Positions 14,287 to 57,889 are shown, numbered from the stretch's first letter. The stretch is 64,000 nucleotides of DNA from an uncultured Alphaproteobacteria bacterium (GCA_964424065.1 CAYRHD010000007.1:9094-73093); one strand, 5' to 3'. The notes: a model not told the origin generated them from the letters alone. Translations and numbers: made by a program.

Positions 14287-14307
14287 ACACGCATGGGTTT
14301 TTTGGAA

Positions 14308-39227: not shown

Positions 39228-39842
39228 ATGACAAAACGAATTGACTCTAAACATAAAATTGACCGACGCTTGGGTGTTAACTTGTGGGGCCGGCCGAAGA
39301 GCCCTATTAATACACGCGCTTATGGGCCAGGTCAACATGGTCAACGCCGTTCTAAACCATCGGACTATGGGTTACAGCTTTCTGCAAAGCAAAAGCTGAA
39401 GGGATATTACGGAAACATAACAGAACGTCAGTTCCGTAGGCTTTATGCAGATGCCCTTCGTAAGCGTGGGGATACGGGTGAAAACCTTATTGGTCTTTTA
39501 GAATCACGTTTAGATGCAGTAGTATACCGTATGAAATTTGTACCAACCGTCTTTGCAGCACGTCAATTTGTCAACCATGGTCATGTTATGGTGAATGGTA
39601 AGCGCGTCAACATACCTTCATATCTTGTCAAGCCAGGTGACGTTGTTGAAGTTCGTCAAAAATCAAAAGAATTGCCTATGGTTTTAGAAGCAACCCAGCT
39701 CGCTGAGAGAGATATTCCTGAATATATGGATGTGGATCAAAAAACCATGAAAGGAACCTACGTAAGAGTTCCTACTCTTCTTGAAGTTCCCTATCCGGTT
39801 CAAATGGAACCCCATCTTGTGGTTGAGTTCTACTCTCGATAG
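39228..39842 (+). CDS. rpsD: 30S ribosomal protein S4
   Basis: 204 aa. Begins [22 protein letters not shown] and has an S4 RNA-binding domain. Confidence 0.95.
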
Positions 39843-39855
39843 TTCTTTACTATAG

Positions 39856-39931
<76 letters not shown>

Positions 39932-40461
39932 GGGAACTCAAGGGTTTCTAAATCTCCGCGTTTCTCAAGCACACGTTAATTTTTTAAAGAAGCTTACGAA
40001 AGGATTTGCTAGTTAGACAAAGTTAAGTTTAACTATATCACATATAGCATTATTTTCCAATTGACGTTATTTTCGTTCTCTGCAAAAACTAGTCAAAATA
40101 TTACTGTTCATGGAAATGCTGCTATTAGTGGAAATGACAATAAAGTTGACAACGTCACAAATGTTTCAGGAGAATCAATCACCATTTTCTTCCAAATCTC
40201 GATAGCTAATTCTATATTAGCAGTACCACCTTATACAACTTAAGATGATCTCTCTTTGAAAATGACGCCATTTAAAATCTCTCATCATTCCTCCACAAAA
40301 AACTTCCACTTTACATTCATATCATTCCTATATTTTTGCAACAGAGCTATAAATTTTCTAAACGGTTATCTAATTTTCTTGATTTATTTTCTCTATAAGC
40401 TTTATATAAAAATATTATTTTTGGAGGATATGCATCTAAAATATAAATTTTTTGAGAGAGT

Positions 40462-41094
40462 ATGATAAAAAAAATCCCACGATGTGTTTTTTGTAATTTA
40501 GAAGAAAAATTGAAAATTTATGCAACAAAAAATTTTTTTGTTATATTTGATCCTTACCCTTTAGTTGAGGGACATCTTATCATAAGTTCAAAAGCACATT
40601 ATGGATGTTTAGGAGACTTACCTTATAATATGTTAGAAGAAATATTTATTTTAAAGGAAAAAGTCGCTAAAATAATTACAAAGGTTTACAGGAATGTATG
40701 CTTTTATGAACATGGGCGTGCTGGAGGGTGTTTACCAACAGACCCTAACAATCGTATGTGTCATCATTTACATCTTCATGCTATTCCTTTTTATGGCGAT
40801 ATAGTTAAGGATTTAGAATTAAAGTTTAAACCAGAAAAGCTAGACAATTTTTTTAAGGTTAAAGAATATTATGAAGGCCTTGGGGAATATCTCTATTTTG
40901 AAAATTCATTAGGTGAAATGATGTTTTATTCCGTTAATGAAGGAGATGTGCCTATGCATTATTTTAGAACATTGATTTCTAAGTACATAGGAAAACCACA
41001 TCTTGCCGACTGGTCCTTGTTTCCCCATAGAGACACATGTACATTAAAAACTGCTTCAAAAAAGATTCAGCAATATCATTATCTATTTGATTAG
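40462..41094 (+). CDS. HIT-superfamily protein with ~90-aa C-terminal extension
   Basis: 210 aa with CVFCN, EGHLIISSKAH and the histidine triad CHHLHLHAIPF. Confidence 0.7.
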   Translation: MIKKIPRCVFCNLEEKLKIYATKNFFVIFDPYPLVEGHLIISSKAHYGCLGDLPYNMLEEIFILKEKVAKIITKVYRNVCFYEHGRAGGCLPTDPNNRMCHHLHLHAIPFYGDIVKDLELKFKPEKLDNFFKVKEYYEGLGEYLYFENSLGEMMFYSVNEGDVPMHYFRTLISKYIGKPHLADWSLFPHRDTCTLKTASKKIQQYHYLFD

Positions 41095-41111
41095 GAGCAA
41101 TCTACATAAAT

Positions 41112-42263
41112 ATGATTTATTTAGACAATGCTAGTACTAGTTGGCCAAAACCATCAGCTCTTATTGAAGAGATGGATATTTATTTGAAAGAGATTGGTGT
41201 AAGTCCATTACGCGGAAGTTATAGCAAAACAGAGGAGGGAGATTTTTTTATCTCGAATGTAAGGCGTAAACTTTCAAATTTATTTAATATAAACAACCCA
41301 AATCAAATTAGCTTTACTTTAAATGCGACTCATTCTCTTAATATTGTATTAAAAGGTCTTTTGAAAGCTGGAGATCATGTTGTGCTCTCAAATTTTGAAC
41401 ATAACTCTGTTATAAGGCCTTTAGAAAAATTAATGAGAAGTTCTGGAATCTTCTATAGTATCTACGAGTCGAACTCAGAAGGTTTTTTTGATCTTGAACA
41501 AATCGAAACTTTAATTCGTGACAATACGAAGCTTATAATATGTAATCATGCTTCTAATGTAATCGGAGTTATAAGCCCTATTTCTGAGATTGGAAAGATT
41601 TCTCAAAAACATGGCATTTTTTTTCTTGTAGATTGTGCGCAAACTGCTGGAATTTTAAAGATTGATGTTGAACAAGATCATATCGACTTTCTTGCGGGGA
41701 CATCTCATAAGACTCTCTTGGGCCCTCCTGGATTAGGCTTTCTATATGTTAAGGATCCATCAAAATTAGATACCCTTTGTGAGGGTGGAAGTGGATATAA
41801 TTCGCTTTCAAAGATACACCCTCAAATTATGCCCTTAAAGTTTGAAGCGGGTACTTTAAATTATCTTGGAATAGCTGGGTTGTATGGAAGTTTAAAATTT
41901 TTAGAAAATGAGGGAACAGCTAAAATTTATGATTTAGAGATGCAACTTATGCAATATTTTTTGGAAAATATTTCCCAAATAAAACATGTTAAAATCTACG
42001 GAACTCAAAAGTTAAATTTTAAAATTCCCCTTTTATCTTTCAATTTGAAATCATTGCTTCCATCGGAAGTAGCCTATATTTTAGACAAAAAATATTCTAT
42101 TTGTGTCCGAGCAGGAATTCAATGTGCACCATTAATACATAAAACTATTAATACACTGCCCCATGGAACTGTTCGAATTAGTTTTGGATTTCAAAATTCT
42201 ATCGAAGAAGTGGATTTGTTAGTCCAAGCAATTAAAAATATTTCCTATAAAAAGGCGGTGTAA
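41112..42263 (+). CDS. class V aminotransferase-fold PLP enzyme (short-N-terminus cysteine desulfurase/selenocysteine lyase-like)
   Basis: 383 aa with the N-terminus MIYLDNASTSWPKP, the PLP lysine in GTSHKTLLGPPG and a candidate catalytic Cys in RAGIQCAPLIHK. Confidence 0.8.
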   Translation: MIYLDNASTSWPKPSALIEEMDIYLKEIGVSPLRGSYSKTEEGDFFISNVRRKLSNLFNINNPNQISFTLNATHSLNIVLKGLLKAGDHVVLSNFEHNSVIRPLEKLMRSSGIFYSIYESNSEGFFDLEQIETLIRDNTKLIICNHASNVIGVISPISEIGKISQKHGIFFLVDCAQTAGILKIDVEQDHIDFLAGTSHKTLLGPPGLGFLYVKDPSKLDTLCEGGSGYNSLSKIHPQIMPLKFEAGTLNYLGIAGLYGSLKFLENEGTAKIYDLEMQLMQYFLENISQIKHVKIYGTQKLNFKIPLLSFNLKSLLPSEVAYILDKKYSICVRAGIQCAPLIHKTINTLPHGTVRISFGFQNSIEEVDLLVQAIKNISYKKAV

Positions 42264-42341
42264 AATTTTTGTGAGATTATGGTAATAAAAATCTATATAA
42301 AACAGAAAGTTATTAACAAAGCCTTGCCAAAGAATTATTTT

Positions 42342-42355
42342 ATGTATAAATACAT
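42342..42355. promoter_or_regulatory. perfect inverted repeat ATGTAT-AA-ATACAT (operator candidate) 6 nt upstream of the XRE gene start
   Basis: The palindrome was read directly from the sequence. The same half-site motif recurs three times in the 49092-49438 divergent control region. Confidence 0.55.
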
Positions 42356-42360
42356 AAAAT

Positions 42361-42807
42361 ATGATAAAAATTGCTTCACAAATAAAAAATAGACTTCTTG
42401 AAAGAGGAATGTCAGCACATGCCCTTGAAAAACATGCTGGATTAAAGTCGAGCGCAGTTCAAAATATTCTTAATGGCCGATCGAAAAATCCAAGTATTAC
42501 TATTATTCAAGCTATCGCACAAGCACTTGACTGTAGTGTTCATGATCTTATTGGTGAAGTTTCTTATGAAAATAAGGATGATAATCCACAAATAAATAAA
42601 CTTTCTAGTTCTCCTTGGAATCTTGAACTTTATTTAGAGGTATTTGAAACTGTTACTTCTATTTTAAAAATTAAAAAAATTAACCTCTCAAAGGAAAAAA
42701 TTTTAGAAATTGTAGATGAAGTTTATTTATATGCTCAAAAAGGAAATCAAGATAAGCCTGATGCTCAATTTGCAATGTGGATTATAGAAAAATATATTAA
42801 ATTATGA
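42361..42807 (+). CDS. XRE-family helix-turn-helix transcriptional regulator
   Basis: 148 aa. The N-terminal ~65 aa have a Cro/C1-type HTH pattern (LLERGMSAHALEKHAGLKSSAVQNILNGRSKNPSITIIQAIAQAL). The C-terminal half has no recognised domain. Confidence 0.8.
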   Translation: MIKIASQIKNRLLERGMSAHALEKHAGLKSSAVQNILNGRSKNPSITIIQAIAQALDCSVHDLIGEVSYENKDDNPQINKLSSSPWNLELYLEVFETVTSILKIKKINLSKEKILEIVDEVYLYAQKGNQDKPDAQFAMWIIEKYIKL

Positions 42808-42849
42808 GTTTAAACAATAAATTCAAAAATTAAAAAAAATGAAACTTAT

Positions 42850-44577
42850 ATGAAATTTAAAAAATTATATATAAATAAAGATTATTTTACATTTTTATGT
42901 ACCCTTTTTTTTGCTTCAACATTACTCGTAGGTTTTTTTATTTATGATGCCTATCAAGCTCAAGTGACTGATAAACATAGAAGGTTACGTATCACTGGGA
43001 ATGAAATAGCTATAAATTTAGATGAATTTCTAACTCAAATAAGTGAAATTGTGCTTTCTTTCGGAAAACATATATCTTCTGGAAATACAACTCCTGTTCG
43101 GATAGCTAATGTATTAGGAAAAAAATCGGAAAATCATTATCCAACCGATTTTTTATCTAAAATAGATGCATCTTGGATTTCAAATAACGATTTTATGACT
43201 TTTAATAATCAGTATGGAGTTCTTGATAATCCCACAAATATGTCATTCCGCTCTTATGTTAAGGCTTGTAAAAAGGTTCCGTGGAAATTGCATTTTTCAA
43301 AACCCGCAGTTGGAACTCCTGGAGGATTATGGCAAATTCCGGCTGGAATGGGTATAACAGATAGCGAGGGTAAATACGTTGGAATTATTGCTATAGGGCT
43401 AAATATTGCTGAACTAAATAGCAAAATTCATCGAATTTCATTTGAAAGAGGAGTAAGTTTTGTCCTCTTAGATGATCAATATAGAATTATTCTACAGTCA
43501 CTTGATAATGAGCTTGATCCAAATAGTACATTTTATAGAGACTACTTTTCAGAAAACTCTTTGTTTTTAAATGATGAAGGAATTTTGAAAAATCCTCTAA
43601 TATATAAAGGAATAAATTATAGTTACTATAAGAAAATTAATAATTATCCTTATATATTGTTAATGGGATTTGATAATATTATTTTACAAAACGAATTAAA
43701 AAATAGCATCTTTCCTCATTTGATGGAGTTTGTTGGAATTGGAATTTTAATTTTAATTTTGTTCTTTCTATTTCATAAAAGAATTTTAAAACTGTCGCAA
43801 TTATCTCAAAAAACCCGAGAATCTTTTACTCATCAATTAAAATCTGACATGGATGTCTTTATTAATACAATAATCGCGTATAGCGCCATCATAAAAAAGT
43901 ATTACAATGGCGAGATTGAGGTAGGAGTTGATGAAAAGAGACTTAGAGACTTAATTGAAGAGATATTCCAGAGTGCTTTGAATCTTAGAGTATTTACAAC
44001 TGATTTTCTTAATTTTAATTATGTGTGTGTCAATTCAATTATTAATGAAGTTATAACTATGCAATCTCAAAAACTCGCAATAAAAAACATTAAAGTGAAA
44101 ACTTCTTTAATTAAGGAGCTTCCTCGACTTTGGGCAGATGAACTTCGGCTAAAGCAGATTTTAGGAGGGTTAATATCCCTGAGCATTAAATGTACACAAA
44201 AAAAGGGATGTATGAAAATTATCAATCATTTAAGCGAGGAAAATTCAAGTAATACCTTATATATAATTATCGAAGATAATGGTTTTACTCTCGATGAAGA
44301 TGATTTTGAGCGAATAGATAAGAAGTCTGATTGCGACCTTTTTAAAAATGATATATACGGTTTGGGCCTTGAATATCCAGCTATTAAAGAATTGGTTAAA
44401 CTTCATAGTGGATGCATAAAAGTTGAAAGATTAGAGAAAAGAGGGAAAAAGTTTATTCTTACGTTCCCTTACATTAATCCTTCTCTACGAATGAATGGCA
44501 TGCTCAATAATTCCAAATTGCAAGAGTCTCAAGTTCTTCAAATGTTCAAAGATAGTCAAACAACTTCTATTTCATAG
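42850..44577 (+). CDS. membrane sensor histidine-kinase-like protein (Cache-like extracytoplasmic domain; degenerate N box)
   Basis: 575 aa with two TM segments flanking a ~270-aa extracytoplasmic domain. It has an H-box-like FTHQLKSDMD, a G1-like EDNGF and a G2 YGLGL. The N box reads GGLISLSIK, so both conserved Asn residues are missing. Confidence 0.65.
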   Translation: MKFKKLYINKDYFTFLCTLFFASTLLVGFFIYDAYQAQVTDKHRRLRITGNEIAINLDEFLTQISEIVLSFGKHISSGNTTPVRIANVLGKKSENHYPTDFLSKIDASWISNNDFMTFNNQYGVLDNPTNMSFRSYVKACKKVPWKLHFSKPAVGTPGGLWQIPAGMGITDSEGKYVGIIAIGLNIAELNSKIHRISFERGVSFVLLDDQYRIILQSLDNELDPNSTFYRDYFSENSLFLNDEGILKNPLIYKGINYSYYKKINNYPYILLMGFDNIILQNELKNSIFPHLMEFVGIGILILILFFLFHKRILKLSQLSQKTRESFTHQLKSDMDVFINTIIAYSAIIKKYYNGEIEVGVDEKRLRDLIEEIFQSALNLRVFTTDFLNFNYVCVNSIINEVITMQSQKLAIKNIKVKTSLIKELPRLWADELRLKQILGGLISLSIKCTQKKGCMKIINHLSEENSSNTLYIIIEDNGFTLDEDDFERIDKKSDCDLFKNDIYGLGLEYPAIKELVKLHSGCIKVERLEKRGKKFILTFPYINPSLRMNGMLNNSKLQESQVLQMFKDSQTTSIS

Positions 44578-44578
44578 A

Positions 44579-47500
44579 TTAAGGTTGGTACCTACAAGCT
44601 TTCAGTTTTAGAAGAGATTCTTGTATTCCTTTTTTATCTTTTAGTTCAGTTAAGAGCTTATTAGCTTTTTGAAAATGGTGTATGGCTTTTTCTGAATGAT
44701 TTTCTAGAAATTCTAACTCACCTAATCCTAAGAGCGTCCTTCCTTCTCCTCTTTTATTATTTAATTGATTAAAAATAGAAAGCGCTTGTTGGTAGGCAAT
44801 ATGGGCTTCTTTAAAATTTCTTTTCTTAGTAAATAAATGGCCAAGTTCTCTTAATGTATCCCCTTCGTGAATTAGATTTTCTCTAAATTTAAAAAGATCT
44901 AAAGCACGATTTAAAAAAATCATAGCTTGTTCATAATGAGCTGAATTTGCCTCTAGAATGCCTAACTTTTGCCATACAATTCCTTCAAGCAATGTATCAT
45001 CTTGTTGCTTGAACAGTTGTAATGCTTCTTGAAAATATAACTGAGCTTCATAATTTTTTCCTTCTCTTACTTTTAAAAGGCCAAAGTCTAATTTCGTCTT
45101 AGCGATCTCTATGCTATTATTGATTTTCTTTGAAAGTGATAGGGCTGAATTATAAAGCATTTCAGCCTGATCGTAATGTTCCATTTCCTGGCGGAGTGTA
45201 GCTTCTTCTCTTAAAACTTTGACTTTACCTTGTATGTCTCCGATGCTTGTATAAATTCTATTAGAGTTGTCATAAAGCTCTTCGGCTTTTTGAAAATCAG
45301 AAAGTAAATACTCCAAACGTCCTAATCTTCGTAATGAATCCGCTTCTCCTTTTCGATCATTTGTTTGCCTAAAAATTGTTAAAGCTTGATTATAATAATT
45401 TCGGCACTCATCGAAGTTATCTTGATAAAATGATATGCTTCCTAAACTAACAAGAGCTTTAGCCTCTCCCACTTTGTGTCCAACTTTTTTGCAAAGTTCC
45501 AAACTTCGCTCATAAGATTTTTGAGCATTATTATAGTGGTTGCTTTCTTCTTCAATAAGACCTAAGGTCCTGCTGACTTCAATTTCTCCCCATTTATGAT
45601 TAATGGTTGTAAAAAGAAGCAATGCTTGATCGCAGGTTGTACGCGCTCTTCCATAATTCCCTAGAGTTACATCCAGCTTACATAAACTAAATAAAGTTTG
45701 GGCTTCTACTTGTTTTTCTCCAATTTCCTTTGATAGAAGGAATGCTTGTTCTAAGGAATCTCTGGATTTTTCGTACTCTCCTAATGAGCCTTCTATTTCT
45801 CCTAAATCTCTTAACGCTCTTGCCTCGTTCCGCTTGTTTCCGAGTTTTTTGAAAGATTTAATAGATGTCATATAAATATTTATTGCTTCATCATAATTAT
45901 TTAAGTTTCTTTCTAGATCAGCTTGTTCTAAGATTAATTCTGATATTCCACTCGCATATTTAATTTGTTTTGATAGAGTAAGGGCCTCGGTAAGTAGTGT
46001 TCTTGCTTTTGTGAAGTTACCAATTCTGCGATTGACTTCAGCTAATGCCAAAAGAGAATTTGATTGTCCTGACCGTTCACTCAGGTCTTTATATAAACTT
46101 ATGGCAGATTCAAAAAGTAAAATGGCTTCCCAGGTAAGCCCTTCACGTGAATTGATGTGTCCTAATCCTTCTATCGCGTAAGCCATACACCATTTATTTC
46201 CGATGTTCTTCGCAAGAATAAGTCCTTGCTCGTAGTTACTACGAGCTTTACGAGAGTTGCCTAGAAGTCTGTTAATATCACCCATGAATGACAAAGTCTT
46301 ACTTTGATATTCTTTATTTTTAATTTTGCAAAAAAGAACATAAGCTTGATCAGATAACTCTTTACTTTTTTCGTAGGAACATAATTCTTTCTCGAGTTTT
46401 GCAAGTCCTAATAATGCCTTGGCTTTATAATATACGTTATTAATATTATTTGAAATGGATAAAGAATTTTTATAATATGTTCGAGCTTCATTATAATTTC
46501 CATGTATGCGATTAATGCCTCCTAATCCTAATAAAGAAACTGCTTTAATTTCGGAGTCCTTGCATTTTTCAGAAATGGAGAAAGCTTTTTTAAAATAATC
46601 AAGAGATTCTTCGTAATTATTGACATATGTCTCTAATTTTCCTAAGCCAAGATAAACAACAGCTTCAAGTTTATTAGAAGAACCATTTTCTTTACTCATT
46701 GATTTTAATTTTAAAATAGCATTTCTATAAAGATCTCGAGCCTGATTATATCTCCCTACAGCTGTCATTAAATTTCCATAATCAATAAAAACCTTAAATT
46801 CTCCAAGTGGATTATGGATATCGGTAAAATATAAAAATGCCTTTTCAAAATTTGCTTCGGCTTCATTATAATTTGATAGTAAAAAATTTAAGCGACCAAA
46901 ATAATACAGAGAGTCAGCTATTCCATTAATATCATTTATTTTTTTAAATAATTGAAGGGCTTGTTCAAAATATATTTGAGATTCTTCGTAATTACCTAAC
47001 TTCATCTCTAATTTGCCCTTTGCTTTTAGAATTTTAGCCTCGCCACGTATGTCTTTTGTTTCCTTAAACAGAAAATGTGCTTGATTAAAAGCTGTTAGAG
47101 CTTGTTCATAATGACCTAATTTAGCTTCTAAGTTACCAATTCCTTTTAGTACGGCTCCTTCTTGAACTCGGGATCCTTCCTTTTTGAAAATTGTGAGGGC
47201 TTTCTCATAATCCTCGCGAGCTTCCTCATTATTGCCAGTTAATTTTTTTATATAAGCGAGCCCATTTAAAGCTGTAGCTTCCCCTTTCTTATCATCTAGC
47301 TTTTTAAATAAAAAAATTGCCGAAAGATATGATTCAGCAGCTTTCTTAAAGTCACTATATCTTTCTAAATCTCCTTTCTTTAATAATACTTGCGCTTGCC
47401 CGTCGAAATTATTAATTTTTTGAAAATGTGAATAAGCCTTTTCGTAAAGTTCCTTACATTTTTCAAAATGTCCCAAATAATATTCAGTTTGGCCTAAATC

Positions 47501-48103
47501 TGATAATGTTCGAGCAATTCCTTCTTTATCATCTAATTCTTCGAAATAGTTAAGAGCTAAGCTATAATTTCGCATAGCTTCAAGGAGGTGACCAAGAAGA
47601 CGCTTGCTCGTACCAATGCCGCATAATGAATAAGCTTCCCCTGTTTTTTCTTTTTCTTGTTTAAAAATATCAAGAGCTTTTTGATAATTTATGCTTGCTT
47701 GTTCGAAAAAATTTTTATTTCTTTGTTTTTCAGCTAAATAAAATAGAAGTTTTCCTTCTTTACACCTTTTTGAAATATTACCTTCGCATAGTTTTATATC
47801 AGGTTTATCATTCGAAAGTTTCGGATCAAAGGCGTTACTTAGAATGATTGAAGCGGAAGAGGATAGTTTTTCATTTATGGGAGATAGTATATTTTTTTTG
47901 TCTAGGTAACAAGAGAAATATAAGTAACTTATAAAAATGAGAGTTATTAAAAATAAACTACCTAGCCAAAATATGTGCTTTTTATTTTTAGGATTTTTAT
48001 AAAAAAAATAAACTAAACATAAGATAAATATGAAAGAAAAAATTGACAAATAATACAAACCGACATTGTTAAATAAAATTTTTTGAAATTTGTTGAAATC
48101 CAT
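44579..48103 (-). CDS. membrane-anchored tetratricopeptide-repeat protein
   Basis: 1174 aa with two N-terminal TM helices, followed by about 26 consecutive ~40-aa TPR-like units (recurring ...G.A...LG......G.Y..A...YE.AL.I....D..GEA...). Confidence 0.85.
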   Translation of the reverse strand: MDFNKFQKILFNNVGLYYLSIFSFIFILCLVYFFYKNPKNKKHIFWLGSLFLITLIFISYLYFSCYLDKKNILSPINEKLSSSASIILSNAFDPKLSNDKPDIKLCEGNISKRCKEGKLLFYLAEKQRNKNFFEQASINYQKALDIFKQEKEKTGEAYSLCGIGTSKRLLGHLLEAMRNYSLALNYFEELDDKEGIARTLSDLGQTEYYLGHFEKCKELYEKAYSHFQKINNFDGQAQVLLKKGDLERYSDFKKAAESYLSAIFLFKKLDDKKGEATALNGLAYIKKLTGNNEEAREDYEKALTIFKKEGSRVQEGAVLKGIGNLEAKLGHYEQALTAFNQAHFLFKETKDIRGEAKILKAKGKLEMKLGNYEESQIYFEQALQLFKKINDINGIADSLYYFGRLNFLLSNYNEAEANFEKAFLYFTDIHNPLGEFKVFIDYGNLMTAVGRYNQARDLYRNAILKLKSMSKENGSSNKLEAVVYLGLGKLETYVNNYEESLDYFKKAFSISEKCKDSEIKAVSLLGLGGINRIHGNYNEARTYYKNSLSISNNINNVYYKAKALLGLAKLEKELCSYEKSKELSDQAYVLFCKIKNKEYQSKTLSFMGDINRLLGNSRKARSNYEQGLILAKNIGNKWCMAYAIEGLGHINSREGLTWEAILLFESAISLYKDLSERSGQSNSLLALAEVNRRIGNFTKARTLLTEALTLSKQIKYASGISELILEQADLERNLNNYDEAINIYMTSIKSFKKLGNKRNEARALRDLGEIEGSLGEYEKSRDSLEQAFLLSKEIGEKQVEAQTLFSLCKLDVTLGNYGRARTTCDQALLLFTTINHKWGEIEVSRTLGLIEEESNHYNNAQKSYERSLELCKKVGHKVGEAKALVSLGSISFYQDNFDECRNYYNQALTIFRQTNDRKGEADSLRRLGRLEYLLSDFQKAEELYDNSNRIYTSIGDIQGKVKVLREEATLRQEMEHYDQAEMLYNSALSLSKKINNSIEIAKTKLDFGLLKVREGKNYEAQLYFQEALQLFKQQDDTLLEGIVWQKLGILEANSAHYEQAMIFLNRALDLFKFRENLIHEGDTLRELGHLFTKKRNFKEAHIAYQQALSIFNQLNNKRGEGRTLLGLGELEFLENHSEKAIHHFQKANKLLTELKDKKGIQESLLKLKACRYQP

Positions 48104-48188
48104 AAAAAATCCTTTAAATTTTTATAAGATAATTTTATTCATTATTATTTTTTATCTGGTTGATTTAGCGGATTATTTTATAACCCTA

Positions 48189-49091
48189 TTACTGTGAATC
48201 CGTATTTAATTTTATATTTTTCCTATTCTTTTTTATAAGTTGTCCACAACCCCCCTCAACATCTCGTCCTCTACTTATTTGTAGAATTGTATCTAATCCT
48301 TTTTTAGCTACGATATTCTTAAACTCATAAGCAAATTCATCTGATACTCTTTGATAAGGAAGTCCAATTGTAGGATTGTATAGTTGTATTTGAGCTTCAA
48401 AGTAGCGTGGATCAAGTAAATTTGCGAAATCTATAGCATGCTGCTGTGTATCATTAATTCCTTTAAGTAAAAGATATGTGGCCTTTACATATCCATTTGT
48501 TTTTTTAGCATATTCTTTGCATGCTTCTATGGCTGATTCAATGGAATATTTTTGTGTTATTGGCATAATCTTTGTTCTTTCTGCATTGTATGGGGAGTGA
48601 ACAGAGAGATAAAGCTTAAGTCTTATATCTAAAGATAAGTTTGCTAATTCATATATACGGTTAGATATCCCAACCGTTGAAAGACTCATTCTATTAAGGT
48701 AAGGGAACTTTTCTTGAACGACACCAAGAAATGTGCATATATTATTATAATTCTTTAAAGGTTCACCCATTCCCATCAATGCAATGTTAAAGGCTGCGTC
48801 ATCTTTTTCTATCTCGTTTTTCACGATATCTTTTACAATTAGATCAACTTGTTCGAGTATTTCTTCTGGAGTAAGATTAGCAAAAAAGCCACCATGTCCA
48901 GTAGCGCAGAACTTGCATCCCATAGCACATCCTGCTTGAGACGAAACACAAATACGATATTCTTCAAAAGCTATCCCATTATTTGGTGGAAGGCGAAAAT
49001 ATATTGATTCAAATAAATTTCCTTCTTGGTTTTTGAATGCATATTTGATGCTTCCATCAGAAGATATTGATTTATTAATTATTTCAAGCAT
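48189..49091 (-). CDS. RlmN/Cfr-family radical SAM methyl-synthase, lacking the N-terminal accessory domain
   Basis: 300 aa with ICVSSQAGCAMGCKFCATG (cluster CxxxCxxC plus the upstream Cys), MGMGEPLKN, SLSTVG and a C-terminal GGCGQL. It is collinear with E. coli RlmN from about residue 85 onward. An AGGAGAA RBS lies 7 nt upstream. Confidence 0.85.
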   Translation of the reverse strand: MLEIINKSISSDGSIKYAFKNQEGNLFESIYFRLPPNNGIAFEEYRICVSSQAGCAMGCKFCATGHGGFFANLTPEEILEQVDLIVKDIVKNEIEKDDAAFNIALMGMGEPLKNYNNICTFLGVVQEKFPYLNRMSLSTVGISNRIYELANLSLDIRLKLYLSVHSPYNAERTKIMPITQKYSIESAIEACKEYAKKTNGYVKATYLLLKGINDTQQHAIDFANLLDPRYFEAQIQLYNPTIGLPYQRVSDEFAYEFKNIVAKKGLDTILQISRGRDVEGGCGQLIKKNRKNIKLNTDSQ

Positions 49092-49110
49092 AGAGCCTTC
49101 TCCTAAACAT

Positions 49111-49138
49111 ATAATCTATAATCTATAATCTACAATCT
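49111..49138. repeat. heptamer tandem repeat (ATAATCT x3, then ACAATCT) in the divergent control region
   Basis: Read directly from the sequence. It creates phased TATAAT hexamers at 49110, 49117 and 49124 on the + strand and lies 20-50 nt upstream of the radical SAM start codon. Confidence 0.85.
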
Positions 49139-49313
49139 ATAAAATGTAAAATCCCCAACATTATGATCCTTCTTACCAAAAGTTATTTTTGAATAGCTAT
49201 AGACTTGTTCATTTGTGTTCTAATCATTAAAGATATGTAGTTTTTTATAAAGTGGTATGTTGAGAGATCTTTCCCTCGTTCTCGTAACTTCTAAAATTTC
49301 TTTTTATAAAATT

Positions 49314-49327
49314 ATGTATAAATGCAA
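49314..49327. promoter_or_regulatory. operator-like motif ATGTAT-AA-ATGCAA
   Basis: Same half-site and spacing as the palindrome at 42342. Confidence 0.45.
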
Positions 49328-49336
49328 AATTATCTA

Positions 49337-49365
49337 TTGACCATTCGATACGATTATGTATTTAT
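49337..49365 (+). promoter_or_regulatory. candidate sigma70-type promoter of the selD operon (TTGACC-N16-TATTTA)
   Basis: The -35 element lies at 49337-49342 and a -10-like element at 49359-49364. The -10 element is embedded in operator-like motif 49356-49369. It lies about 75 nt upstream of the first ORF. Confidence 0.35.
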
Positions 49366-49369
49366 GCAA
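49356..49369. promoter_or_regulatory. operator-like motif ATGTAT-TT-ATGCAA
   Basis: Same motif family. It overlaps the candidate -10 element. Confidence 0.45.
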
Positions 49370-49413
49370 AAGACAATGCTTTTATCGGTTAGCCCGATTT
49401 AAAAGACAAAAGT

Positions 49414-49427
49414 ATGTATTTATACAA
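49414..49427. promoter_or_regulatory. operator-like inverted repeat ATGTAT-TT-ATACAA
   Basis: Near-perfect palindrome directly abutting the AAGGAAG ribosome-binding site of the 67-aa ORF. Confidence 0.5.
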
Positions 49428-49438
49428 AGGAAGAAAGA

Positions 49439-49642
49439 ATGAAGATTCGTTTAATTAGAACAAATGCAACAACAGCACATCTAGGTGCGATTCAAAAGAT
49501 CAACGATATTCAGTTTCAGGATATTTATGATGTGGATGACAAAAAAGCTAAAGGCTTAAATTTAAAATTCGGCGCAATCCCTGCTAGGGACTTAAAAAAT
49601 ACAATTACCAATTCACAAGAAGTATACTTTAAAGGAGAATAA
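49439..49642 (+). CDS. small hypothetical protein (67 aa), first cistron of the selD operon
   Basis: A good RBS (AAGGAAG) lies 6 nt upstream. Its stop is 1 nt before the next start, and its last codons (GGAGAA) supply the next gene's RBS. It faintly resembles a degenerate Rossmann N-terminus of Gfo/Idh/MocA type, without the Gly motif. Confidence 0.5.
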   Translation: MKIRLIRTNATTAHLGAIQKINDIQFQDIYDVDDKKAKGLNLKFGAIPARDLKNTITNSQEVYFKGE

Positions 49643-49643
49643 A

Positions 49644-50963
49644 ATGAATTTATTAAAAATAAAATCTATTTCTATTTTTTTTGCTAAAATGTTCTATATT
49701 TGCTTTTGTTGGGCCAATGATGATCTTGATATTGAAGCATTAGCATCTCTAACAAAAAATCTCAAATCTTTAGAGATTAATCATAAGAATTTCAATGAAT
49801 TAAAAGATATAGAAGGGATTATCCTTATAGGATCGAGTGGAGCAGGGAAAACAACTTTGCTTAATGAAATACGAGAAAAATGTAGAGGAGTTTCAATTCC
49901 AATAAGATTTATTACAAGACCCTTAAGATTAAATGAAGATGATGATGAAAATACTCATATTACAAAAGAACAATTTGAGGAAAAGCTTAAAAATGGAGAG
50001 ATTTCTTTTGCTTGGACTAGAGGATTTGAAAATGACCGTAAAGAATATTACGGATTTGAAAATGCCTCGAATGGTTTTCCAATTTATTCAGCAAATAATT
50101 CATTCTTTTACTCTGAAACAGGGTTTGCAAATTTTAACCATCTCATTATAAGCGTGTACGCTCCGGATGAAATACGTCAACATCGCCTTGCTTTGAGATC
50201 GCCAGATTTTGCCCTAGGAGAATTTAAAATCAGAGTAGAAGATCCTTATAAGGATGCTAAAAATTTCGCCCATGTCGTCGTTCATAACTATGGAGATTTT
50301 GAAAACCGATCTTCTAAATTTGACCTTGTAACCTTTATTAATGCTTTGAAAGTTATTAAATCTGGATGGGGCAGAATCAGAGACCTTAATAATCATAGGA
50401 TTGAATACCGTGCCCGTCTTTTTGATATTATGACTCATGATGTTGAATTTTTTGGTGGTGAGAGGAAAACTTTCCAATATGCTAGGAGAAGTCCTGGAGT
50501 TCGTGTTCTTGCAGAGCAAAATGGCAAATTTCTAATTACGGCAGAATGGAGAACCGAAATAAGTGGATGGGATTTCAGGTTACCTGGTGGTAAATGCTTT
50601 GAAAATACAGAAGAGTATGCAGATTATTTAAAAAAATTTGGCAAAGATTTTTTGCCAGAAAAGGGGATAGATTCTGCGGTTTTAGAACTAAAAGAAGAAT
50701 GTGGGCTTACACTAAAAAAAGAGGACGTAAAGCATTTTGCTACCTCAAAGTGTGGGGCTACCGTTGATTGGGATTTATATTACTATTTTACTGAACTTAC
50801 AGATACATCTAATGATTACTCCCATACATCTCCAGAAGGTGAAAGAACTTTATCATTATGGTTGCTTCCTGAAGAAGTCCTAAATCTCTGTTTTAATGGC
50901 AGCATAAGTGAAGATCGTACGGCAGCTACTCTCATGCGCTTTTTTTTAAACTCAAAAAAATAG
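49644..50963 (+). CDS. fusion protein: PhnN/guanylate-kinase-like P-loop kinase plus Nudix hydrolase
   Basis: 439 aa. The N-terminal half has the P-loop GSSGAGKTTLL, then IRFITRP...ENTHITKEQFEEK...ISFAWTRGF...YYGF, which is collinear with PhnN (ribose 1,5-bisphosphokinase). The C-terminal half has a Nudix-like box, LPGGK...AVLELKEECGL. The N-terminal 25 aa are hydrophobic. Confidence 0.7.
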   Translation: MNLLKIKSISIFFAKMFYICFCWANDDLDIEALASLTKNLKSLEINHKNFNELKDIEGIILIGSSGAGKTTLLNEIREKCRGVSIPIRFITRPLRLNEDDDENTHITKEQFEEKLKNGEISFAWTRGFENDRKEYYGFENASNGFPIYSANNSFFYSETGFANFNHLIISVYAPDEIRQHRLALRSPDFALGEFKIRVEDPYKDAKNFAHVVVHNYGDFENRSSKFDLVTFINALKVIKSGWGRIRDLNNHRIEYRARLFDIMTHDVEFFGGERKTFQYARRSPGVRVLAEQNGKFLITAEWRTEISGWDFRLPGGKCFENTEEYADYLKKFGKDFLPEKGIDSAVLELKEECGLTLKKEDVKHFATSKCGATVDWDLYYYFTELTDTSNDYSHTSPEGERTLSLWLLPEEVLNLCFNGSISEDRTAATLMRFFLNSKK

Positions 50964-50970
50964 GTGAACT

Positions 50971-52023
50971 ATGAATACAGTTACTTTAACTAACTTATCG
51001 CAAGCCGGTGGATGCGGATGTAAACAGCAAGAAGACACACTTTCAGAAATTTTATGTTCTCTAAAACAAGATTTCATAAATCCTGCTGTTATTGTTGATT
51101 TTAAAAATAGTGATGATTGCGCTGTTTATGATTTAAATGAGGAGGAATATCTCCTTATGACAACGGATTTTTTTACTCCAGTAGTTGATGATCCTTACGT
51201 CTATGGAGTTGTTTCAGCAGCAAATGCTCTAAGTGATATATATGCGATGGGTGGTAAACCAATTATAGCAAATGCCATCCTTGGATATCCACGAGATCAA
51301 ATAACTGCCAAAGATCTAGAGCAAATTCTTCGAGGAGGAACCGATACTTTAAATAGTTCCAATTGCAGTATTGTAGGTGGTCATACAATAGAAAATCCTC
51401 AACCATTCTATGGGTTTACCATTCTAGGAACTGTTAAGAAAACTAACTTGAAAAAGAATATTGGAGCTCGGGAAGGGGATCTTTTAATTCTGACAAAGCC
51501 TCTTGGAGTTGGAATCTATTCAAATGCATTGAAGTTAGGATTATTAACAGATGAGTTATATAATTTTATGCTACCCCATCTTATGAAGGTAAATACGGAA
51601 GGTTTTGATCTTGGATTTCTCTCAAGTATTCATAGTATGACAGATTTAACAGGATTTGGGCTGATTGGACATGCTTTAGAACTTTGTCAGGAAGCAAAGC
51701 TATCACTTGAGCTATTTTACCACAGAATCGATTTCTTCCCTCAATTAGAAAATCTAGTGGGAGCTGTCACATCGCCAAATAGTGGAGTTATGAGAAATTA
51801 CCACAATTATAAAGATAAAATTAAGATTAGAGAAGTTAAGGAAGGTGAAAATCTTGATAAACTCTTACCCTTATTTGATCCTCAATCTAATGGTGGACTT
51901 TTGCTATCCATTGAAGAAAAGGATTTAAAGCAAGTTTTAAAAATTGTTGGACCACAAGCTAGAATTATTGGGCGATTTGTAAATAGAAGAACACAAGAAA
52001 CTCCAATTGTAATTGGAAAATGA
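50971..52023 (+). CDS. selD: selenophosphate synthetase (selenide, water dikinase), Cys-type
   Basis: 350 aa. LTNLSQAGGCGCKQ matches the SelD active-site loop (E. coli LTQYSHGAGCGCK). DDCAVYDL, TTDFFTPVVDDPY and SDIYAMGGKPI follow in order, as in SelD. Confidence 0.9.
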   Translation: MNTVTLTNLSQAGGCGCKQQEDTLSEILCSLKQDFINPAVIVDFKNSDDCAVYDLNEEEYLLMTTDFFTPVVDDPYVYGVVSAANALSDIYAMGGKPIIANAILGYPRDQITAKDLEQILRGGTDTLNSSNCSIVGGHTIENPQPFYGFTILGTVKKTNLKKNIGAREGDLLILTKPLGVGIYSNALKLGLLTDELYNFMLPHLMKVNTEGFDLGFLSSIHSMTDLTGFGLIGHALELCQEAKLSLELFYHRIDFFPQLENLVGAVTSPNSGVMRNYHNYKDKIKIREVKEGENLDKLLPLFDPQSNGGLLLSIEEKDLKQVLKIVGPQARIIGRFVNRRTQETPIVIGK

Positions 52024-53234
52024 TGACCATGTTACATAAAAATCATTCTAAAATTAGATGCTTATTTCCTGCTTTAAAAGATGGAACGGTTTATCTTGAC
52101 AATGCAGCAACGACTTTGAAGCCAACGCCTGTCATTGAGAAACTTCTTGAGTATTATCAAGAATATCCAGCAAACGTGCATAGAAGTGCCTATAAAATGG
52201 CAGAAAAAGCAAATTTGGAATATGAAAAATCACGGTGTTTAGTTCAGAAATTTATCAACGCGATTTCTCCAGAAGAAATTATTATTACAAGAGGCTCAAC
52301 TGAAGCGATAAATCTAGTTGCACTTTCTTGGGGTGAAGAAAATATAAAGCAAGGGGATAAAATCCTTATCTCTATTTTAGAACATCACTCAAATATTCTT
52401 CCTTGGGAAAAACTTGCTGAGCGTAAGAGTGCTCAGGTTAATTATATTCCTGTTACACCTCAAGGTGATGTAGATTTAGAAAGTTTTCAAAACCTTTTAG
52501 ATAGCAAAGTTAAGCTTATTGCTATTACAGGTGCATCTAATGTTATTGGAACTTTAGTTCCTTTAGAGAAAATCATCTCTCTGGGGCATTTACATGGTGC
52601 AAAAGTATTAGTTGATGCTGCTCAAGCTGCAGCTCATGTATCTATTGATGTGCAGCAACTTAATTGTGATTTTCTTTGTTTATCCGCGCATAAGGTATAT
52701 GGAGCAACAGGTATTGGAATTTTATATGGAAAACGTTCCTTATTAGAGAATATGCCTCCAGTTATTTATGGGGGAGGGATGGCTGATAGACTCCGATTGA
52801 ATGGTGCTGGTTATGAATTACCTCATAAGTTTGAAGCAGGTACACCTCCAATAGCTAGTTTTATTGCTTTTGGTGCTGCTATTGAGTTTATTCAAGCTTT
52901 AGGATTTGAAAGTATATGTAATTATGAAGAAGAGCTTTTCGAACACTTCTGCAAGGAATTACATAATATCCCTGAAATAAGCATTCTTGGTGCTCCTCAA
53001 AAGAGGATCGGGGTTTGCTCTATTTTAGCCAAGAATATTCATGCCCATGATCTAGGGACTCTACTTGATGATTATGGAATTGCTGCAAGAGTTGGGCACC
53101 ATTGCGCATCTCCCCTCATGAAACATTACGGGGTTTCATCTACCCTTAGAATCTCTCTTGGTATTTATAACAATTTAGAAGATATAGAAAAGACAATTTA
53201 TGCATTAAAACGAATAGTGGAGATGTTCAAATGA
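52020..53234 (+). CDS. sufS: SufS-type (group II) cysteine desulfurase / selenocysteine lyase
   Basis: 404 aa with LDNAATTLKP, ANVHRS, LEHHSNILPW, the PLP lysine in LSAHKVYG and the catalytic Cys in RVGHHCASPL. It is collinear with B. subtilis SufS. Its start overlaps the selD stop. Confidence 0.88.
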   Translation: MMTMLHKNHSKIRCLFPALKDGTVYLDNAATTLKPTPVIEKLLEYYQEYPANVHRSAYKMAEKANLEYEKSRCLVQKFINAISPEEIIITRGSTEAINLVALSWGEENIKQGDKILISILEHHSNILPWEKLAERKSAQVNYIPVTPQGDVDLESFQNLLDSKVKLIAITGASNVIGTLVPLEKIISLGHLHGAKVLVDAAQAAAHVSIDVQQLNCDFLCLSAHKVYGATGIGILYGKRSLLENMPPVIYGGGMADRLRLNGAGYELPHKFEAGTPPIASFIAFGAAIEFIQALGFESICNYEEELFEHFCKELHNIPEISILGAPQKRIGVCSILAKNIHAHDLGTLLDDYGIAARVGHHCASPLMKHYGVSSTLRISLGIYNNLEDIEKTIYALKRIVEMFK

Positions 53235-53692
53235 ACGTAACTGATACTTCAAAACTTTATCAAGAAACCATTCTTGCTTTTAATAAAAAGCCTTTGAATT
53301 ATGGCATTATTCAAGGGAACAACTGCAATATGGCCGAATGTCACAATCCACATTGTGGTGATACGGTTAAACTTTTTATAACCTTTTCAACAACAACTGT
53401 GCCCACCATTAAGCAAATTAGCTTTTATGGTGAAAGCTGTGCTGTTACAAAAACTTCTGCATCTTTGATGACAAAAAAATTAAAAAATAAGAATTTAACT
53501 CAGACTGGGAAGTTAATTTCTAGTTTTTACTCTCTTGTGGAGAATTCTTCTTCTGATGATCAAACTGAAGAGAATGAGCTAGGTGAGCTTAAAATTTTTA
53601 GTTCTCTTAGCCGCTTTCCGTCTCGGAAAACATGCGCATTGCTACCGTGGAAGGCTTTAGAACAACTCACTTATGCGTTTGTGAAAAAATGA
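53231..53692 (+). CDS. sufU: SufU-type sulfur/selenium acceptor scaffold
   Basis: 153 aa with the three SufU cysteines in context (NPHCGD, GESCAV, RKTCALLPWKALEQ). Its start overlaps the sufS stop in an ATGA. Confidence 0.85.
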   Translation: MNVTDTSKLYQETILAFNKKPLNYGIIQGNNCNMAECHNPHCGDTVKLFITFSTTTVPTIKQISFYGESCAVTKTSASLMTKKLKNKNLTQTGKLISSFYSLVENSSSDDQTEENELGELKIFSSLSRFPSRKTCALLPWKALEQLTYAFVKK

Positions 53693-54612
53693 ATTTTATT
53701 ATAGCAGCAGGTTACAAATACACAGACGTGGATGTTTTAGCTTCTAGTATTGCGCTTAGAGAATTAATGCATCTTCAAGGAAAAAAAGCGGATATACACC
53801 TAACAGGACCATTTAATGCATCAATTCCAAGTAGATTTATTGATAGTGTGACTGAGTATGTAAATCGAACAGTTCTCTCAAAACTATCAGAATGTAATTT
53901 TATTCTTGTAGATATTTCTAATCCTGATTATGTCGATTCGTTTGTAAAAATAGACAAGGTATGCGCAGTCTATGATCATCACTTTGGATATGAAGAATTT
54001 TGGGCGAGACGCATAGGAGTCCAAGCAAAGATTGAACCAATAGGGGCGTGTGCCACTCTTATATGGGAAGAATTTAAGACTTATAATTTTCATAAGAAAA
54101 TTTCTTCTTTAGCAGCTAATCTTCTTTATACAGCGATTATCTCCAACTCTCTAAATTTTAACGCTCAAGTTACTTCCTTACGAGATAAAACAGCAGCAAA
54201 AGAAATCCTTAACTACGTTACACTTCCTGAAAATTGGGCTAAAGAGTATTACAGAGAAGTTGAGAATCATATATTTCAGAATTTACCTAATTGCATACAA
54301 AACGATACAAAAATAATTTCTAAATCTCATTTGGATTTTTTGTTTAGCCAATTAGAAATACATGATCCTAAAAGTCTTATGAAAAAATATAATGTTCATA
54401 AAGAGATGGATCGTATTTTTCCAAAAAGAAATTGGCTTCTTAATTTAATTAGTATTAAAGAAGGGAATAGTTATTTATTTACTAACTCAGAAAAAATAAG
54501 AAATATGTTGGAACAGGTTATTCCGGTAATAAGAAAACCCTCCTTCTCAAAATCCAAAACAGTATGGTTGCGTAAAGAAATACTAGGATTGATAGAGAAG
54601 GTGAATTCATAA
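53689..54612 (+). CDS. DHH-family phosphoesterase (family II pyrophosphatase-like, divergent metal ligands)
   Basis: I place the start at the ATG at 53689, which overlaps the sufU stop in an ATGA; the track ORF begins at 53632. Motifs appear in order: YKYTDVDVLASS (DxD), ILVDISN, VYDHHFG (DHH), PIGACATL and AIISNSLNF. Family II PPases have H, DHNE and SDT at three of these positions. Confidence 0.65.
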   Translation: MNFIIAAGYKYTDVDVLASSIALRELMHLQGKKADIHLTGPFNASIPSRFIDSVTEYVNRTVLSKLSECNFILVDISNPDYVDSFVKIDKVCAVYDHHFGYEEFWARRIGVQAKIEPIGACATLIWEEFKTYNFHKKISSLAANLLYTAIISNSLNFNAQVTSLRDKTAAKEILNYVTLPENWAKEYYREVENHIFQNLPNCIQNDTKIISKSHLDFLFSQLEIHDPKSLMKKYNVHKEMDRIFPKRNWLLNLISIKEGNSYLFTNSEKIRNMLEQVIPVIRKPSFSKSKTVWLRKEILGLIEKVNS

Positions 54613-54711
54613 ACAATATTAAACGTTCATATCACTTGTTCACGACACCCTCAATTCTTTGATTGCTTCTCAAGATGATAAATTGTAACTTACCTGTAAA
54701 ATGAGGAAATC

Positions 54712-55440
54712 ATGGACATCTTATGTTTGACACATGCCGATTTTGAAACACCGGGTGTGATTGAAACCTGGGCACATGAGAATAGTCATTCCTTTACCAT
54801 CTGCAGACCTTACCGAGGAGAGCCTCCTTTTGCTCAGCAAAACTTTGATTGCCTGATCTTCATGGGTGGGCCTCAAAGTCCCCTGGAATTAGAAAAGGAC
54901 CCTTATCTCAAAGATGAAATCCAACTGATTCAGAAAGCCATTCAAGATGACAAGCTTATTTTAGGGTTTTGTTTGGGGGCTCAATTGATTGGTGAAGCAT
55001 TGGGTGCAAAAACGGAGCGTAGTCCAGAAAAAGAAATTGGTGTTTATCCCATTACCCTGACGGAAGAAGGACTTTGTGATCCTCTCCTCCAAGGATTGCC
55101 AGTTCAATTTCCAGTCATTCATTGGCATAATGATATGCCGGGTGAGACGAAAGATTCTGTCATATTAGCTAGAAGTGAAGGATGCCCTCGTCAAATACTG
55201 CGATATGGATCAAAGGCTTATGGATTCCAATGTCATCTTGAAATTACTCCAGACGGAATTGAAGATATGATCCGAGCGTGTCCCAATGACCTTGCACCAG
55301 GCCGCTTTACCCAAGATGCAGCAACACTGCGAAAACAGGATTATGTCACAATCAATAAAATGATGATTTGCTTATTAGATCGTTTTGTTGCCTTAAATGA
55401 GGAGATCCGCACTCATGCCAAAGCCTTTTCAGCTTATTGA
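54712..55440 (+). CDS. class I glutamine amidotransferase-like protein
   Basis: 242 aa with the nucleophile elbow GFCLGAQL and a later FQCHLE (His/Glu of the triad). Confidence 0.8.
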   Translation: MDILCLTHADFETPGVIETWAHENSHSFTICRPYRGEPPFAQQNFDCLIFMGGPQSPLELEKDPYLKDEIQLIQKAIQDDKLILGFCLGAQLIGEALGAKTERSPEKEIGVYPITLTEEGLCDPLLQGLPVQFPVIHWHNDMPGETKDSVILARSEGCPRQILRYGSKAYGFQCHLEITPDGIEDMIRACPNDLAPGRFTQDAATLRKQDYVTINKMMICLLDRFVALNEEIRTHAKAFSAY

Positions 55441-56828: not shown

Positions 56829-56837
56829 TAAGAATAA

Positions 56838-57871: not shown

Positions 57872-57889
57872 AAGGTATATAGACTGTCT

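Follow-up and report, generated by a model that had tools for sequence, protein, structure and literature searches.

A stretch of 64,000 nucleotides (nt) from an uncultured alphaproteobacterium (GCA_964424065.1, CAYRHD010000007.1:9094-73093; hereafter the window), which is part of a 73.5-kb NCBI contig from a metagenome assembly, contains an AT-rich island at positions 39932 to 54711, next to a tRNA-Lys(CUU) gene; the remaining 49.2 kb are its flanks. The island is probably a horizontally acquired mosaic with decayed mobility genes, which came from a lower-GC, Holosporales-like donor and carries a module for selenium mobilization and activation. The acquired DNA would extend from ~39,940 to 54,711, within a core chromosomal region of a ~42%-GC host and just downstream of the tRNA gene. 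The flanks carry core genes (sucA, sucCD, mdh, recJ, tkt, gap, recG, rpsD, and those for an amino acid ABC transporter). Within the island, a kinase-Nudix fusion (KinNud), SelD, SufS, SufU, and a DHH phosphoesterase are encoded in this order, all on the plus strand.

Composition and borders of the island

An earlier note on this DNA, made from the sequence alone, had described an AT-rich block that starts directly after the tRNA-Lys gene and ends before a GATase gene. This description holds, as the GC content is 31.9% in the island versus 42.1% in the flanks, and a two-breakpoint maximum-likelihood scan places the borders at 39,975 and 54,730, ~45 bp or less from those first drawn. The 1-kb GC profile falls from 0.40 to 0.46 down to 0.27 to 0.36 over positions 40,001 to 55,000 and regains the flank level beyond, and the 1-kb values of the island (0.273 to 0.359; n = 14) and the flanks (0.378 to 0.463; n = 48) do not overlap (Mann-Whitney P = 8e-9). 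The earlier note had counted 12 intact genes. The 11 open reading frames (ORFs) of at least 100 amino acids (aa) stand, with Pfam and NCBIfam families that confirm the gene content as first described, and beside them there is one 67-aa ORF of uncertain status. The GC content at third codon positions (GC3) averages 0.22 (0.13 to 0.29) in these 11 ORFs versus 0.36 (0.28 to 0.44) in 44 flank ORFs; at first positions (GC1) it is 0.43 versus 0.53, and that at second positions (GC2) shifts too. GC3 lies between 0.21 and 0.23 in 9 of the 11 island genes, and this uniform value of ~0.22 indicates one compositional background of ~32% GC. Tetranucleotide signatures, proposed as a check along with the GC and GC3 profiling that gave this sharp shift, also set the island apart: correlations with the window flanks range from 0.40 to 0.72 for the locus of a relative (L091), versus -0.02 to 0.25 for part A of the island and 0.17 to 0.44 for part B. 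An internal GC step of the island at ~50,150 was considered as the trace of two separate acquisitions, and this reading was rejected because the step falls within the coding sequence of KinNud and both parts have a uniform GC3. The step reflects the higher GC1 and GC2 of conserved enzymes.

The features that make up the two borders are as follows.
39856 to 39931, plus strand: tRNA-Lys(CUU) (ARAGORN; Rfam tRNA, 76.3 bits), the left anchor, kept after rpsD in the relatives L091 and L002
39932 to 40186, no strand: spacer with no ORF and no database match (GC breakpoint at ~39975)
40187 to 40348, minus strand: truncated IS6-family element (NF033587, E = 5.5e-8)
54613 to 54711, no strand: right junction, with neither a repeat nor an insertion sequence (IS) end (GC breakpoint at ~54730)

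The earlier note had reported no transposase and had taken the 530 bp after the tRNA to be noncoding, and both statements need correction, since this stretch includes a truncated IS6 element that consists of a terminal inverted repeat (IR) and a transposase pseudogene fragment of 33 codons. The IR, GCTCTGTTGCAAAAATAT (40348 to 40331), shares 17 of 18 nt with the IR of an IS of "Candidatus Paracaedimonas acanthamoebae," faces the cargo, and sits 46 bp upstream of the transposase start. The transposase remnant starts at 40285 and runs on the minus strand to 40187, where homology to IS6 transposases ends at codon 33; it is interrupted by an in-frame TAG and reads MRDFKWRHFQREIILSCIRWYC*YRISYRDLEE. 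It has 79% aa identity to a transposase on plasmids of "Ca. Paracaedimonas acanthamoebae," and its next-best matches include plasmids of Legionella longbeachae and L. lytica. The outer end of the element is thus oriented toward the cargo and its deleted interior toward the tRNA. The window and L091 still have ~10 nt in common past the CCA end of the tRNA. No second IS6 IR or transposase fragment was found in the window.

The other part of that claim, that the island lacks an integrase and a repeat of the tRNA end, was borne out. No tyrosine or serine integrase turned up when all island ORFs were scanned with Pfam and NCBIfam and when 39932 to 40470 was read in six frames. The tRNA 3' end is not repeated in the window (a 25-mer with up to 3 mismatches matches the tRNA itself only), its terminal 14-mer matches the window at chance level and nowhere inside the island, and direct or inverted repeats between the left and right borders do not exceed chance, with no common 10-mer or longer. 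An Rfam scan of the window returned two tRNAs and nothing further, and a promoter and terminator scan gave the same counts as in shuffled sequence. The mobility machinery of the island is decayed, with a single truncated IS6-family end left by the tRNA.

Because the island sits at a tRNA, an integrase-type insertion at this hot spot, followed by IS-associated deletion of the integrase and of the right attachment site (attR), is the favored route of entry, although we give it somewhat less than an even chance. The truncated IS would mark this deletion. As the main alternative, we infer that an IS6 (IS26-like) element could have brought in the whole island, or only the left part of it, either as a translocatable unit or through a plasmid cointegrate, with the IS copies deleted later and the tRNA position coincidental. 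The terminal repeat does abut the cargo side directly, and the best IS matches lie on the amoeba-symbiont plasmids named above; however, only a single remnant is present, KinNud and DNA resembling the island are missing from the PLSDB plasmids, and a chance insertion at ~250 bp or less from the tRNA 3' end is improbable, so that delivery by IS6 is rather doubtful. We know of no targeting of tRNA genes by IS6 elements. Other routes, such as homologous replacement, are about as likely as IS6 delivery.

Relatives of the host were sought with RpsD in GTDB genomes and JGI metagenomes and with a search for GATase homologs, the best matches having 91% identity for RpsD and 76% for GATase. The nearest other assemblies by RpsD (87 to 91% identity) are all alphaproteobacterial metagenome-assembled genomes (MAGs), and everything else is at most 78% identical. 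These nearest relatives share rpsD-tRNA-Lys, lack the island, and show no other synteny. In the best flanked relative, L091 (a 54-kb contig), rpsD is followed by tRNA-Lys(CUU) without an AT-rich block or island; nucleotide homology to the window ends ~10 nt past the tRNA CCA, and there is no synteny upstream or downstream.

Independent contigs of a Logan assembly (run SRR16797978) have 100% identity to the window and change over exactly at both borders (38661 to 39891 and 39874 to 41824 on the left; 50344 to 54715 and 54692 to 58424 on the right). Contig ends also fall at tRNA-Lys or within it in two assemblies made independently, namely, in the Logan contig L001 and in the contig L002 of the nearest GTDB MAG (rpsD, 87%). 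Breaks at tRNA-Lys and the changeover at the right border fit a variable region, as weak evidence, and could also reflect strain heterogeneity or repeats. They also bear on an assembly artefact, by which a block from a lower-GC organism of the same metagenome would have been joined to the host at a shared tRNA-Lys sequence. The metagenomic origin of the 73.5-kb contig, the stops of the same-run Logan contigs at both borders, and the stop of the related MAG contig inside tRNA-Lys are what speaks for such a join. It is nevertheless very improbable, since both flanks have the same host-type composition and two chimeric joins would be required, the right one without a causative repeat, and since individual Logan contigs cross the junctions: L173 joins 58 nt of the tRNA (its 3' half) to island DNA, and L172 begins in the operon, spans the right intergenic region completely, and reaches the start of the GATase gene, with a 24-nt unique overlap with L171.

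The selenium operon and its occurrence in other lineages

The operon and the small ORF that precedes it comprise the following genes.
49439 to 49642, plus strand: 67-aa ORF (MKIRLIRTNATTAHLGAIQ...), ending 1 nt before the KinNud start, status uncertain
49644 to 50963, plus strand: KinNud, kinase-Nudix fusion, the signature gene of the operon (domain searches, AlphaFold2 model, and Foldseek)
50971 to 52023, plus strand: SelD, selenide-water dikinase, Cys form (NF002098, 324.9 bits versus a cut-off of 299; TIGR00476, 324.1 versus 125)
52020 to 53234, plus strand: SufS-type group II cysteine desulfurase/selenocysteine lyase (TIGR01979, 497 bits versus 475.1), ATGA overlap with selD
53231 to 53692, plus strand: SufU-type Zn-dependent sulfur (selenium) transfer protein (TIGR01994, 105.5 bits versus 92.5), ATGA overlap with sufS
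53689 to 54612, plus strand: DHH-family phosphoesterase (Pfam DHH), ATGA overlap with sufU

With a 7-nt gap between the KinNud gene and selD and three ATGA overlaps thereafter, the five genes form a translationally coupled operon. The 67-aa ORF has a ribosome-binding site and no family match, and it could represent a leader peptide, the remnant of a gene, or noise. KinNud consists of an N-terminal hydrophobic helix, a guanylate kinase/PhnN-like P-loop kinase, and a Nudix domain of the ADP-ribose/NDP-sugar pyrophosphatase type. Its AlphaFold2 model has a mean confidence score (pLDDT) of 85.6, and Foldseek matches include 5c7t, 8wv3, 3x0l, and 1lvg, with target-normalized TM-scores of 0.72 to 0.78 for the Nudix domain. 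In three of four KinNud homologs, the N-terminal helix resembles a signal peptide or anchor. The protein matches no curated family; only 26 homologs were found among 5.8e9 proteins, and an exhaustive search gave ~15 full-length representatives and a few hundred stand-alone halves (~350). SelD has the motif GGCGCK at residues 13 to 18. SufS has the GHHCA cysteine, and its PDB scores are approximately equal for Escherichia coli SufS/CsdB "selenocysteine lyase" and Bacillus subtilis SufS. The DHH protein is distant from family II pyrophosphatases (PRK05427, 60.8 bits, far under the cut-off), and its PDB matches are to Mn-dependent pyrophosphatases in the N-terminal domain alone. Its longest ORF starts at 53632; the ATG at 53689, which gives 307 aa, is the likelier start because it overlaps the SufU stop as ATGA and because this length fits the 305- to 309-aa homologs. 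A single-sequence AlphaFold model of this protein (pLDDT, 41.5) was unusable.

The earlier note had recognized a scaffold protein of the Firmicutes SufU type, and the family score above the cut-off agrees with this, as do the Zn ligands (NPHCGD, GESC, and KTCA) and the SufU insertion, which align to B. subtilis SufU (5xt5). A view of SufS-SufU as a stray iron-sulfur (Fe-S) assembly system was not upheld, since the pair belongs to a conserved five-gene SelD operon, which the earlier note had not seen as one unit, and SufB, SufC, and SufD are absent from the island and from the gene tables of all related loci. Without SufBCD in any locus, SufS-SufU is unlikely to be an Fe-S assembly system, and its placement beside SelD makes it likely that the pair carries selenium for the synthesis of selenophosphate and not sulfur for Fe-S cluster assembly. 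Most plausibly, to judge from this gene arrangement, SufS-SufU feeds selenium to SelD. Selenium delivery to SelD is known in vitro for NifS/CsdB-type lyases. By family membership, SufS, a pyridoxal phosphate (PLP) enzyme, would abstract selenium (or sulfur) and pass it via SufU to SelD, which would then make selenophosphate. More speculatively, KinNud and the DHH protein would process a nucleotide or sugar-phosphate substrate, either as a selenium acceptor or for the recycling of by-products. No selA, selB, selC, selU (ybbB), yqeB, yqeC, senA, or senB gene was found in the 11 island ORFs and the 36 of 44 flank ORFs of at least 100 aa that were scanned; in addition, none for selA, selB, selU, yqeB, yqeC, xanthine dehydrogenase, senA, or senB lies beside the operon in the window or in the related loci with gene tables or DNA.

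The window SelD belongs to a clade of 31 sequences with 94 to 44% identity, beyond which identity falls to a generic ~40%. Gene tables or DNA from seven other lineages of this clade were compared, with identities given for SelD relative to the window: L087, 94%; L088, 84%; the P0003 contig, 84%; L089, 73%; L082, L083, and L084, 60%; and L085 and L086, 51%. The P0270 contig was reached via its KinNud homolog (43% identical). KinNud-SelD-SufS-SufU-DHH occurs in identical order in L088, L089, L082/L084, L085, the P0003 contig, and the P0270 contig, and L087 has the first four genes on a contig that ends inside sufU. The related loci encode kinase-Nudix proteins of 430 to 495 aa and DHH proteins of ~307 aa. 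Further SelD and KinNud pairs lie on contigs of matching size (10375, 14120, 8553, 2716, 35915, and 4887). The neighborhood of the operon is different in every lineage examined, including a ribosomal protein operon in L082, ileS and a transfer-messenger RNA (tmRNA) gene in L085, trmD-rpsP-ffh on the P0270 contig, a TrwB fragment and a major facilitator superfamily transporter on the P0003 contig, and GerE regulators in L088 and L089. In L085 (a 43%-GC locus, 8250 to 14545), no other part is as AT-rich as the ~6 kb of the operon, which ends 170 bp from the 3' end of the tmRNA gene (13860 to 14260, minus strand). The tmRNA gene is another classic insertion site of islands. Upstream of the L085 operon are an XRE gene and a gene for a 1,228-aa caspase-tetratricopeptide repeat (TPR) protein.

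The closest relatives of the operon lie on contigs of 32 to 35% GC throughout, versus 31.9% for the island. Since the ~32% GC background of the island equals that of these contigs, the donor was probably a lower-GC, Holosporales-like bacterium. The distribution suggests that the operon is portable and has its home in lineages of lower GC content, among them one labeled Holosporales by NCBI. In PLSDB, the KinNud protein and the island DNA have no match, and SelD finds generic SelD only (at most 42% identity); searched against phages, the island DNA matched only two Listeria phage records without annotation, over 127 nt of SufS.

A variant of the locus was found in L174 (2152 to 7546; Logan SRR33696515), where a Nudix-kinase fusion of reversed order (452 aa) is encoded beside a DHH homolog 34% identical to that of the window, and where SelD, SufS, and SufU are absent. 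L174 looks like a sister system with the same kinase, Nudix, and DHH trio, which, given the absence of the selenium proteins, would be a functional trio able to work with other partners. For two further L174 ORFs (478 and 528 aa), neither Pfam nor the PDB gave a match.

The presence of the operon in several Holosporales-like lineages, possibly of the host's own order, can also be read as ancestral vertical inheritance, in which case the low GC of the island would come from a mutational bias of the region, from weak expression, or from relaxed selection, the genes being accessory ones for interaction with a host. The operon has the GC content of its surroundings in L082 to L084, the island has neither an intact mobility gene nor an att repeat, and the absence from L091 says little because synteny is eroded in this group. 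Such inheritance is nonetheless unlikely. Local bias does not readily account for 11 adjacent genes that shift jointly in GC1, GC2, and GC3, with breakpoints in both bordering intergenic regions, when none of 44 flank ORFs has a GC3 below 0.28; in addition, an IS6 end lies at the border, the neighbors of the operon change from lineage to lineage, and the island matches the contigs of its nearest homologs in GC content.

Several points weigh against acquisition from a lower-GC donor as the favored explanation. No relative is close enough to reveal an empty site, and it is the composition, the IS scar, and the varying contexts of the operon that carry the case for acquisition. An integrase, an att repeat, and a second IS copy are all absent, which makes any mechanism of insertion conjectural. 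Holosporales-like relatives of the host lineage also carry the operon, and its ancient presence with a local compositional oddity is conceivable. The window comes from a metagenome contig, and at each border one Logan contig gives way to the next, where they overlap by no more than 18 nt (left) and 24 nt (right). As for the module, the roles given to KinNud and DHH are guesses, and the pair also occurs without SelD, as in L174.

Accessory genes, regulation, and other features of the window

The island carries the following further genes and putative regulatory sites.
40462 to 41094, plus strand: HIT-family (HxHxHxx) nucleotide hydrolase/transferase-like protein (weak Pfam CwfJ_C_1, DcpS_C, and HIT; PDB HIT proteins and Ap4A phosphorylase)
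41112 to 42263, plus strand: TIGR01977 (EF_2568-type) PLP cysteine desulfurase/probable selenocysteine lyase (TIGR01977)
42341 to 42354, no strand: copy of a palindromic motif, TATGTATAAATACA, 7 nt upstream of the start of the XRE gene
42361 to 42807, plus strand: XRE-family helix-turn-helix regulator, 148 aa (Pfam HTH_26 and HTH_3)
42850 to 44577, plus strand: membrane sensor histidine kinase (dCache and HATPase_c)
44579 to 48103, minus strand: 1,174-aa TPR protein with an N-terminal membrane segment and ~25 TPR repeats (Pfam TPR_12, 349 bits, 11 stretches; internal DNA repeats)
48189 to 49091, minus strand: core-only RlmN/Cfr-like radical S-adenosylmethionine (SAM) enzyme (TIGR00048, 238 bits, under the cut-off of 290)
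49313 to 49426, no strand: three further motif copies (at 49313, 49355, and 49413), in the intergenic space from which the radical SAM gene and the selenium operon diverge

The selenium theme that the earlier note had seen in the island is borne out by SelD, SufS/SufU, and the TIGR01977 protein together. The last of these scores 446.2 bits versus a cut-off of 377, and the narrower SclA model gives 335.8 bits, under its cut-off of 525. Haft and Self described the TIGR01977 family as probable selenocysteine lyases linked to selD (PMC2276186). Together with its HIT partner, this lyase would provide a second entry point for the mobilization of selenium. The window encodes three HIT-domain proteins in all (21561 to 22892, plus strand; 31367 to 31807, minus strand; and 40462 to 41094, plus strand), one of which has 443 aa, with a C-terminal HIT domain and an N-terminal region of ~300 aa without assignment.

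The radical SAM protein aligns to residues 81 to 359 of E. coli RlmN, lacks the N-terminal ~80-aa domain, and has the CX3CX2C motif and both methyl-transfer cysteines; Cfr models score far under the cut-off. No response regulator was found among the island ORFs to accompany the histidine kinase. None of the HIT, TIGR01977 lyase, XRE, histidine kinase, TPR, and radical SAM genes was found with the operon elsewhere. Genes for large TPR proteins do reappear in its vicinity in L085 and L089. A PADLOC search for antiphage defense systems gave only generic desulfurase, TPR, and helix-turn-helix similarities.

A 14-nt motif, TATGTATWWATRCA, with the palindromic core TGTATnnATACA, has four sites in the window, all of which are in the island (chance expectation, 0.00). 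It is absent from 173 related loci, with the exception of one unrelated match, and is therefore specific to the regulator of the island and not part of the conserved operon. Through these putative TATGTATWWATRCA sites, the XRE protein would control its own gene and the divergent promoter region of the operon. Shared XRE control of this kind would wire cargo of different ancestry into one unit, as suggested by the positions of the sites.

In the flanks, positions 16024 to 18387 (minus strand) form a lower-GC, low-GC1 patch with a gene for a patatin-like phospholipase (17290 to 18387) and two ORFs without a Pfam match; this patch may be another accessory or effector locus. One ORF at 5959 to 7098 (minus strand) combines the N-terminal domain of a type IV prepilin peptidase (A24) with a phospholipase/carboxylesterase domain. 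In addition, four flank ORFs of host-like composition have no Pfam match (7236 to 8885, minus strand, 549 aa; 8939 to 10150, minus strand, 403 aa; 60325 to 61197, minus strand, 290 aa; and 61591 to 64000, plus strand, >800 aa).

Likeness to known systems and meaning for selenium biology

Like tRNA-linked genomic islands of the integrase type (pathogenicity or fitness islands), the island described here has an atypical composition, a sharp border at a tRNA 3' end, accessory cargo with regulators, and a setting among core genes; unlike them, it has no tyrosine integrase or att repeat, its junction lies ~10 nt outside the tRNA, and only an IS6 fragment is present. It resembles IS26/IS6 pseudo-compound transposons and translocatable units in that a terminal IR (core CTGTTGCAAAA) abuts the passenger DNA and that the nearest copies of the element are on amoeba-symbiont plasmids. 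It differs from these units in having one truncated, inactivated copy without a second IS, no detectable 8-bp duplication, and no cargo-bearing plasmid. As a genomic island, it is of an ordinary kind, and it offers a clean case of mobility genes erased in a reduced, symbiont-like genome, with the cargo intact and un-ameliorated.

The operon shares with B. subtilis SufS-SufU the combination of a group II desulfurase and a Zn-SufU with Cys/Asp/Cys/Cys ligands and the SufU insertion, encoded by adjacent, overlapping genes; it differs in that no SufB, SufC, or SufD gene adjoins the pair in any locus and that SelD lies beside it. With the Enterococcus faecalis EF_2566-EF_2568 locus (Se-dependent molybdenum hydroxylase) and the senABC selenoneine loci, it has in common a SelD linked to a NifS/SufS-like PLP lyase, a TIGR01977 member, and a logic of selenium mobilization, selenophosphate formation, and a dedicated downstream enzyme. 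In contrast to those loci, SelD is joined here with SufU, a kinase-Nudix fusion, and a DHH protein instead of yqeB/yqeC or senA/senB. The KinNud-SelD-SufS-SufU-DHH combination is not described in the literature searched. To our knowledge, SelD is the entry point for every known biological use of selenium, and KinNud and DHH partners occur in no known selenium pathway. On two occasions, new chemistry has come out of "orphan" SelD contexts, namely, the Se-dependent molybdenum hydroxylase cofactor and selenoneine.

We tentatively suggest, as a possibility rather than an expectation, that the operon encodes an undescribed selenophosphate-dependent pathway, confined to a few dozen Holosporales-like, probably protist-associated lineages and spread among them on islands, a pathway in which KinNud and DHH would build or tailor a selenium-containing nucleotide or sugar-phosphate metabolite. 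If this is true, it would be a further selenium utilization trait, beyond the supply of selenophosphate to the selenocysteine or selenouridine machinery. The operon is a concrete candidate for new selenium biochemistry in under-studied intracellular bacteria.

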